Virus record (IMG/VR): IMGVR_UViG_2654587571_000017
Origin: a virus
Lineage: Duplodnaviria; Heunggongvirae; Uroviricota; Caudoviricetes
Reading direction: 5' to 3' (one strand)
DNA: 2,770 nt
Shown here: piece by piece, positions 107 to 1,101 of the stretch
How positions within the stretch are numbered: position 1 is the first letter of the stretch
How the letters are laid out: every line of letters begins with the position of its first letter
Translations under genes and position numbers: made by a program
The notes under the pieces: model-generated
Seen by the model: only the letters and a program-made list of their open reading frames with translations
Database searches by the model: none
What the model was told of the DNA's origin: nothing

Positions 107-661
107 TTATTTATCCCCTGCAGGAAACCTCTTATACAAAGTTGACACACCAACATCATAGATAATCGCCACCTTCTGGCGAGGAACTCCTGATGCAATT
201 AATCGTCCGGCCTGTTCCCATTGTTCTGGTGTAAGTTTGGGACGACGTCCACCAATTCGTCCCTGTGCGCGAGCAGCTTCCAGTCCAGCTTTTGTTCTTT
301 CAACAATCAGTTCACGCTCCATTTCAGCCAGGGCACCCATCACATGAAAGAAAAAGCGCCCCATTGGGGTACTGGTATCAATTGAATCCGTCAGACTACG
401 AAAGTTGATGCCTCGTTCGCGCAACTCCTCCACCAGCACGACAAGATGCCGCATACTGCGCCCCAGCCGGTCCAGTTTCCAGACCACCAGCGTGTCACCT
501 GCCGATAATGTCCTGAGCAGTTTTTTCAGTCCCGGCCTTTCGGACTTTGTACCGCTTATCTTGTCTTCAAAAATCAGCTCACATCCTGCACAGTTCAGCG
601 CATTACGTTGTAGATCTGTGTTCTGGTCATTTGTTGATACGCGTACATAGCCAATAAGCAT
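107..661 (-). CDS. pin: Site-specific DNA invertase, serine recombinase of the Hin/Gin/Cin/Pin family (184 aa from the ATG at 659-661; the 196-aa ORF in the track starts 12 codons upstream at 697)
   Basis: Translation begins MLIGYVRVSTNDQNTDLQRNAL, the recalled N-terminal signature of the invertase family with the catalytic serine in the VRVST motif. Further recalled family blocks are present: DTLVVWKLDRLGRS, GINFRSLTDSIDTS, MGRFFFHVMGALAEMERELIVERT, GRIGGRRPKLT and a C-terminal helix-turn-helix ending VSTLYKRFPAGDK. A GGGGGA Shine-Dalgarno-like sequence sits 6 nt upstream of the ATG at 661 (minus-strand sense). The stop is TAA at 107-109 (reverse complement). Confidence 0.95.
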   Translation of the reverse strand: MLIGYVRVSTNDQNTDLQRNALNCAGCELIFEDKISGTKSERPGLKKLLRTLSAGDTLVVWKLDRLGRSMRHLVVLVEELRERGINFRSLTDSIDTSTPMGRFFFHVMGALAEMERELIVERTKAGLEAARAQGRIGGRRPKLTPEQWEQAGRLIASGVPRQKVAIIYDVGVSTLYKRFPAGDK

Positions 662-687
662 GGTAGATCCCCCTGACAAAAGCAGGA

Positions 688-1101
688 ATGATGCCATTTG
701 CTCGTTATTTCTGCATTTTCATAAACGTTGGTTTGGGAGAAGCGGCAAAACGGGATGTAGGGACAGGGGAAAATCAGATACCGGACATGGCCTCTTTTGC
801 CAGTGGTGATGGATGGATGAAATTACCCAACGGTAAAATTCTGCAATATGGTCGAGGCGAGGCTATGCCGAAATTATCGACGCAAACAATGAGGATTACA
901 TTTCCTATCCCTTTCCCTAAAAAAGCGGACTGCGCCATTCTTACCCATTCTGGTGATGGCGGTGCGCCTTTAGGCGCTGGGCGAGGGTTCGTGATGACTG
1001 CAGAAGGCCCTACGTTAACCGGCTTTAATTCTGCTTACAGAACGTCATCAACCAGTGACACGGTATCTATGCATTACAGTTGGTGGGCTGTTGGTGAGTA
1101 A
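688..1101 (+). CDS. Phage tail-fibre protein, C-terminal variable (receptor-binding) cassette; probably has no initiation codon of its own and is expressed only when fused to a constant N-terminal part by inversion. The functional coding part probably begins at the crossover core near 728-730; 688 is only the first in-frame ATG.
   Basis: The frame is open from 667 to the TAA at 1099-1101. The translation (SGDGWMKLPNGKILQYGRGEA...ITFPIPFP...SMHYSWWAVGE) resembles the recalled C-terminal domain shared by Mu S / P1 S / e14 StfE-type tail fibres (a KLPxGxIxQWG-like motif followed by a Gly/Ser/Thr-rich beta region). The ATG at 688 has no properly spaced Shine-Dalgarno sequence and lies in the invertase upstream region. 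The gene is followed 20 bp downstream by a tail-fibre assembly gene. Confidence 0.8.
   Translation: MMPFARYFCIFINVGLGEAAKRDVGTGENQIPDMASFASGDGWMKLPNGKILQYGRGEAMPKLSTQTMRITFPIPFPKKADCAILTHSGDGGAPLGAGRGFVMTAEGPTLTGFNSAYRTSSTSDTVSMHYSWWAVGE
716..741. other. Recombination crossover site for the DNA invertase (hix/gix/cix/pix-like, 12-bp half-site + 2-bp core + 12-bp half-site)
   Basis: Sequence TTTTCATAAACG-TT-GGTTTGGGAGAA. The left half-site matches the recalled consensus half-site TTATCNAAAACC at about 9 of 12 positions. The reverse complement of the right half-site (TTCTCCCAAACC) matches hix-type half-sites (TTCTTGAAAACC / TTATCCAAAACC) at about 10 of 12. It lies 55 bp upstream of the invertase start and inside the 5' end of the tail-fibre variable reading frame, which is where the gene-proximal crossover sites sit in Mu, P1 and e14. 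Confidence 0.7.

Follow-up and report, generated by a model that had tools for sequence, protein, structure and literature searches.

In the window analysed here (the whole stretch of 2,770 nucleotides, from a Caudoviricetes virus record), a 26-bp imperfect dyad occurs at positions 716–741 within an open reading frame. A preliminary description regarded it as a crossover site of the Hin/Gin/Cin/Pin type, located at the constant/variable junction of a tail-fibre gene and paired with another site beyond a nearby insertion sequence (IS). The questions raised by this locus are which site it is, where its partner lies, and whether the DNA segment that it borders can still be inverted. In the Hin/Gin/Cin/Pin systems, an invertase dimer binds to each site, and two such sites come together with a Fis-bound enhancer on supercoiled DNA. 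Both strands are then cleaved by the catalytic serine at the 2-bp core, one half-site pair rotates by 180 degrees, and the ends are religated. Thus, the cores of the two partner sites must be identical.

The 26-mer at 716–741 is TTTTCATAAACGTTGGTTTGGGAGAA on the + strand. Its reverse complement, the canonical reading on the − strand, is TTCTCCCAAACC-AA-CGTTTATGAAAA, which agrees at all 26 positions with the published pixR, given as TTCTCCCAAACC AA CGTTTATGAAAA among the recombination sites of the Din family (Hin/Gin/Cin/Pin) in Table 3 of PMC3241671. The published site sequences were taken from this table and cross-checked against the K-12, Mu and P1 records. The agreement with the other Din-type sites is 21/26 for pixL, 20/26 for hixL, 19/26 for both cixL and cixR, and 17/26 for gix. 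Within the window, TTTTCATAAACGTTGGTTTGGGAGAA is the sole match when up to three mismatches are allowed, and none of 200 shuffled sequences had such a match. In K-12 MG1655, the identical 26-mer adjoins pinE, and the exact pixL is found within ycfK/stfP. The proposal of a Hin/Gin/Cin/Pin-type site was therefore borne out, and the alignment to published sites that had been suggested as a check led to pixR itself.

The site has the architecture of the Din family: 26 bp, in which two 12-bp half-sites of imperfect symmetry flank a 2-bp core and the centre is of the form AAAC(C)/(G)GTTT. The outer half-site TTTTCATAAACG (716–727), on the pin side and outside the invertible segment, differs from the outer half of pixL. 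The inner half-site GGTTTGGGAGAA (730–741) lies within the segment and recurs unchanged, in inverted orientation, as the inner half of pixL in the intact relatives described below. Between them lies the dinucleotide at which strand exchange is placed (728–729; TT on the + strand, AA on the − strand); this assignment follows the 12-2-12 layout of the published Din sites, and the P1 record marks the crossover equivalently in cixL and cixR. The half-sites are symmetric at 8 of the 12 positions. The imperfect dyad and the GGTTT right arm that had been described are thus present, but the left arm is AAACG rather than AAACC, a deviation that the published pixR also carries. The TT core, which had been considered unusual, is simply AA on the opposite strand, as in hix, cix and pix. 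Overall, 716–741 is very probably pixR, the invertase-proximal site of the e14 Pin switch, which in this genome has been orphaned, with its segment frozen, by an IS-linked deletion. As a site of e14, pixR is already known and belongs to the textbook; the fresh point is the loss of pixL from this lineage through that deletion.

The site is adjoined by its cognate invertase gene of the Hin/Gin subfamily. The gene pinE (107–661, − strand) is transcribed away from the site and encodes an intact serine DNA invertase of 184 aa (Pfam Resolvase, E 1.5e-51, and HTH_7, E 1.4e-13). The protein is identical to K-12 PinE at 180 of 184 residues (98%), to P1 Cin at 152 of 184 and to Mu Gin at 145 of 184 (79–83% to Gin and Cin). 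RefSeq also annotates pinE here, and its protein accession is the same in an IS-free relative. A mechanical list of open reading frames put the pin start at ATG 697 (196 aa), within 19 bp of pixR (716). The true start is ATG 661, according to the alignment with gin, cin and K-12 pinE and to RefSeq, and the distance between pixR and the divergent pin gene is 55 bp. For the 5′ part of pin (572–643, − strand), we infer from homology to P1 the role of a recombinational enhancer, which is Fis-dependent in this family. The P1 record annotates the Cin enhancer at nt 19–90 of the cin CDS, and pin and cin agree at 58 of 72 positions (81%) there versus 324 of 450 (72%) over the rest of the gene. A regular-expression search for the Fis motif had no discriminating power: it gave no matches in the 5′ part of pin or of gin, nor in that of cin, which includes the annotated enhancer of P1.

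The partner of pixR can be seen in relatives that are free of the IS. In strain EC05 (L002), pixL, TTCTCCCAAACC-AA-GGTTTTCGAGAG, is present in inverted orientation about 1.89 kb away, inside stf; its AA core and inner half-site are identical to those of pixR, and it matches the published pixL. The two sites appear in this locus as a 20-nt inverted repeat with 95% complementarity and 1,863 nt between the arms. Thus, an inverted partner with an identical core exists at about 1.9 kb in the IS-free relatives, which also have the constant head and a pair of opposed cassettes with one chaperone gene apiece. The reading frame is open across the site in the window, as had been noted: 715–744 encodes IFINVGLGEA on the + strand, inside the open frame 688–1101. 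The codon phase is the same at both sites, the offset modulo 3 being 1 for pixL in the stf head (in L002 and K-12) and for pixR in the frame of the window; the stf head reads ...ALEN-L-GLGE... where the window reads ...IFIN-V-GLGE.... Because the two sites share one phase, a flip fuses either cassette to the head in frame, and the possibility of in-frame fusion that had been raised holds.

Both orientations were found in natural genomes. A predicted flipped junction was built from the stf head, the outer half and core of pixL, and the cassette of the window, and was sought in genomes. It occurred as a single uninterrupted alignment in 73 E. coli genomes, and the arrangement with the cassette adjacent to pin in 278. 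In strain ETEC4085 (L004), whose locus is flipped, the baseplate genes and ymfQ are followed by the stf head fused to the cassette of the window and by tfa; tfaE and the other cassette then follow on the opposite strand, and pinE comes after them. The predicted fusion has no stop codon and is an annotated CDS in this strain. When L002 and L004 were compared at the base level, the alignment strand was found to switch only within L002 9723–9742 and 11606–11625, both of which lie inside the 26-bp sites. The breakpoints are thus confined to a 20-bp overlap, which shows, for this type of site in natural genomes, inversion with exchange at the core. In K-12, cultures have shown inversion of the e14 segment (PMC4272514); the enzymes that invert it are PinE, PinQ and PinR, and the repeats between which they act are TTGGTTTGGGAGAAGG and CCTTCTCCCAAACCAA (PMC12529663). 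Window 728–743 agrees with these 16-base repeats at 15 of 16 positions.

The half-site plus core was also used to draw two-site loci from public genome and viral contigs. Among the 26 such loci, 24 had the sites inverted, with the inner halves facing and a spacing of 1.5–2.0 kb, and 17 of these 24 were exact pixL/pixR pairs. Two viral contigs carried direct pairs: pixL and pixR 1,021 bp apart in one (L072 1932–2978), and two pixR-like sites 1,383 bp apart in the other (L099 2757–4165). Possible explanations are multi-site (Min-like) systems, arrangements prone to excision, or artefacts that arose when mixed orientations were assembled. The 19-mer of half-site plus core also matched assemblies of Paenibacillus, Ekhidna, Saprospiraceae, Lysobacterales and Bacillota (L012, L015, L025, L028, L030, L031); these non-enteric matches are probably not invertase sites, since about 9 matches are expected by chance in 596 Gb.

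The locus was compared with several known systems. One is the Pin system that inverts the P segment of e14 in K-12 (Plasterk and van de Putte 1985, as cited in PMC4272514). The window shares with it the identical pixR 26-mer beside pinE, the AA core, the inner half-site held in common with pixL, and the position at the mcrA–pinE end of the prophage, in a chromosomal locus next to icd' and iraM. However, the cassette of the window is a different gp53-like allele, 32% identical to the variable part of K-12 StfP; the segment is about 1.8 kb in K-12 and about 1.89 kb in the relatives of the window; and the genome of the window lacks pixL and half of the segment, which were deleted next to the IS.

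Other systems are Mu and P1, whose gix and cix sites were found at the annotated boundaries of the G and C segments with the 12-2-12 layout. These sites resemble the present one in this layout, in the AAACC/GGTTT centre and in their position, where a constant tail-fibre head meets alternative C-terminal cassettes that come with chaperones; the invertases Gin and Cin have, as given above, 79–83% protein identity to that of the window, and in Mu the invertase gene likewise abuts one site. They differ in that gix agrees with the site of the window at only 17 of 26 positions and has a GA core, not AA, while cix agrees at 19 of 26 and is abutted by the 3′ end of cin, not the 5′ end. The Salmonella sites hixL and hixR, used by Hin in flagellar phase variation, belong to the same site family and have the AA core (hixL, 20/26). 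Hin differs from the pix system in that it flips a promoter rather than coding cassettes, and in that hin is inside the invertible segment.

The last system compared is that of the P2-like phage Peduovirus magyaro (NC_041848), which has the layout invertase, cassette, chaperone, chaperone, cassette, and 84% DNA identity to the window over pin, site and cassette, with the same inner half-site and AA core. Both of its sites (L152 4098–4123 and 5959–5984) are TTCTCCCAAACC-AA-GGTATGCGAGAA, 1.86 kb apart. Unlike the pix pair, it has the outer half GGTATGCGAGAA at both sites, and the module is in a complete phage genome record.

By analogy with these systems, the intact element would work as follows. 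A Pin dimer would bind to each of pixL and pixR, and the enhancer in the 5′ part of pin, occupied by Fis, would bring the two sites together. The central AA/TT would be cut at both sites, one half-site pair would turn by 180 degrees, and the ends would be rejoined, so that the P segment (about 1.8–1.9 kb) would flip. There are two C-terminal receptor-binding cassettes, each accompanied by a chaperone gene, and the flip would exchange the one that is joined in frame to the constant tail-fibre head at pixL; the cassette beside pixR is the one unjoined to the head. In the genome of the window, the IS3-family element with the adjacent deletion has taken away the other cassette, pixL, the head and all tail genes, and has probably left the switch frozen.

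The structure of the window around the IS bears on this last step. The order in the window is pinE on the − strand, pixR, the gp53-like cassette, a tail-fibre assembly gene and, from 1521, the IS3-family element. In three E. coli chromosomes, a 100% identical copy of the window lies at the mcrA–pinE end of e14, next to icd' and iraM. The IS is 1,258 bp long on the + strand (1521–2770, with a further 8 bp past the end of the window, to L001 11778); it has the Pfam domains HTH_Tnp_1 and rve, and RefSeq annotates an IS3 transposase with a programmed frameshift. Its ends are imperfect terminal inverted repeats, TGTAGTGGCAC... and ...GACCACTACA. No target duplication was found at the IS, whose flanks are GCG| and |AGG. 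Identity to the IS-free L002 stops at 1520. The assembly (chaperone) gene of the cassette (1122–1550, + strand; Pfam Caudo_TAP, E 2.3e-22) was compared with the intact gene of L002: its frame stays open, the last 15 codons being replaced by 10 IS-encoded codons from 1521 (…DTSGA|CSGTLNLAT*).

Past the IS, RefSeq annotates a truncated tail-terminator gene and then head genes. The second cassette with its chaperone gene, pixL, the stf head, and the baseplate, tape-measure and tube genes are gone from this genome, which retains one cassette and one 3′-altered chaperone gene in place of a constant head with two opposed cassettes. Since the IS abuts the truncated tail-terminator gene, an adjacent deletion has taken all of the tail genes of the prophage. 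The deletion may have arisen by insertion of the IS followed by deletion, or by recombination between two IS copies. The junction of the IS and the tail-terminator gene is shared by the three isolates, which are from Bangladesh and China, and its identity in all three genomes points to a single ancestral event. In the same neighbourhood of EC05 (L002 2562–5086), bluF is split by a different IS3-family element, and an ISKpn26-like IS5 element lies close to ariR, so that IS insertions seem to be drawn to the surroundings of e14.

A partner was sought in the genome of the window as well. Within the window, no second copy of the 26-mer was found with three or fewer mismatches, and the loose centre motif is about as frequent as chance predicts. 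About 120 kb of the 5.0-Mb chromosome NZ_CP189657.1 (L001, L005 and L153; about 59 kb on each side of pixR) was then compared with 14 Din-type sites, comprising 13 published sites and the P2-like one. No credible Din-type partner was found in these 120 kb: besides pixR, the scan gave scattered matches of 18–19 of 26 positions that do not have the AAACC-AA-GGTTT centre, and these were treated as chance. An inverted partner with an identical core is thus absent from the window and from the approximately 120 kb of its own genome. The preliminary description had stated that the lack of a matching partner in the flanks would speak against the site; the flanks do lack one, and this refutes a present-day local function of the site but not its identity. 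Because pixR and an intact pin remain without a local partner, the segment, and with it the tail-fibre switch, is most likely frozen as it now stands in the genome of the window.

Which function, if any, the remaining reading frame has is a separate point. The ORF 691–1101 (+ strand; a RefSeq CDS) consists of a 17-aa leader across pixR and a variable tail-fibre C-terminal cassette of the gp53-like type (Pfam Gp53-like_C, residues 45–136). The cassette proper is 742–1101 and is, in the logic of tail fibres, the unexpressed one. A study of K-12 from 2025 reported that a flip joins a short leader ORF crossing pixR to a gp53-like cassette, giving StfE2, and that StfE2 blocks the adsorption of T2, with evidence largely from plasmid overexpression (PMC12529663). 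The orientation left in the window is the one that this study links to the anti-phage StfE2. The ORF 691–1101 could accordingly be functional itself, as an StfE2-like adsorption blocker that the IS-associated deletion has locked ON, which would be compatible with the identity of the site as pixR. Its build is that of K-12 StfE2, a 17-aa leader plus a gp53-like domain, and the leaders, MPFARYFCIFINVGLGE in the window and MPFACYFFIFINVGLGE in K-12, are identical at 15 of 17 residues, with 32% identity to StfE2 overall; RefSeq annotates the ORF, and an AGGA motif is located 4 nt ahead of ATG 691. However, the leader sequence is dictated by pixR, so its conservation is uninformative on coding. Furthermore, the cassette is just 32% identical to its K-12 counterpart (the StfP variable part), a scan of 540–860 for promoters and terminators found none, including no sigma-70-like promoter, and the K-12 evidence comes mostly from plasmids, as noted. 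The pin-adjacent orientation is also the commoner one among the genomes with an intact switch (278 versus 73). Such a function of the ORF is, on balance, rather unlikely. It is likewise unlikely that, with a reversible switch turned into a fixed one by the IS-associated deletion, pixR now serves only as the 5′ coding leader of an StfE2-like protein with a gp53 domain.

The orphaned pixR might instead still be active, either by pairing with a Din-type site in another prophage, with large inversions or deletions as the outcome, or as a target of Pin paralogues acting in trans. The intact pin fits with this, and Pin paralogues do act in trans on the e14 sites of K-12 (PMC12529663). The sequence of window 560–1101, used as a query, has three places in the chromosome, which indicates related invertase or cassette DNA elsewhere in it, and, as the partner scan spanned about 120 kb of 5.0 Mb, another prophage could hold a distant Din-type partner. 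On the other hand, no credible partner lies within about 59 kb on either side, the natural pairs seen are all 1.5–2.0 kb apart, and the three genomes identical to the window have one and the same local order. Invertases of the Hin/Gin family need their sites and the enhancer in cis on one supercoiled domain, which also counts against continuing activity, and we regard it as very unlikely.

The locus as first described is highly improbable: the site would lie at the constant/variable junction of a tail-fibre gene that is expressed, its TT core would be atypical, and its partner would be found past the IS. It is true that the frame stays open over the site and that a cassette encoding a tail-fibre C-terminal domain follows it; the site does border a variable cassette, in a phase compatible with fusion. 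However, only 9–10 codons precede the site before the divergent pin gene is reached, and the constant head of about 92 codons sits at pixL in the relatives, with none upstream of 716. The site is therefore on the invertase-proximal side and is not the junction of the expressed gene. On the canonical strand the core reads AA, and past the IS there is the truncated tail-terminator gene and, within the DNA scanned, no site. Lastly, although the loose motif AAACCNNGGTTT with two mismatches is common by chance (1.38 occurrences expected in the window, one found), the reading of the dyad as a chance imperfect palindrome unrelated to invertase sites was rejected as having a practically negligible probability, in view of the 26/26 match to pixR, the 0/200 matching shuffles and the position of the site beside pin, which is the same in K-12, other E. 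coli and prophage contigs.

The identification of 716–741 as pixR shows that a true invertase crossover site can be recognised from its letters alone, and it corrects a slip in strand reading (TT for AA). The locus represents a natural example of a phase-variable tail-fibre or anti-phage switch that has been frozen in one state. If the StfE2-like reading of the ORF is true and the protein is expressed, this small lineage of three sequenced isolates would carry, on a divergent allele of the cassette, a permanently ON variant of the anti-phage function that is reported for K-12 StfE2 and is there controlled by a recombinase. The frozen locus could serve to examine whether the StfE2-like ORF next to pin is functional in its own right.
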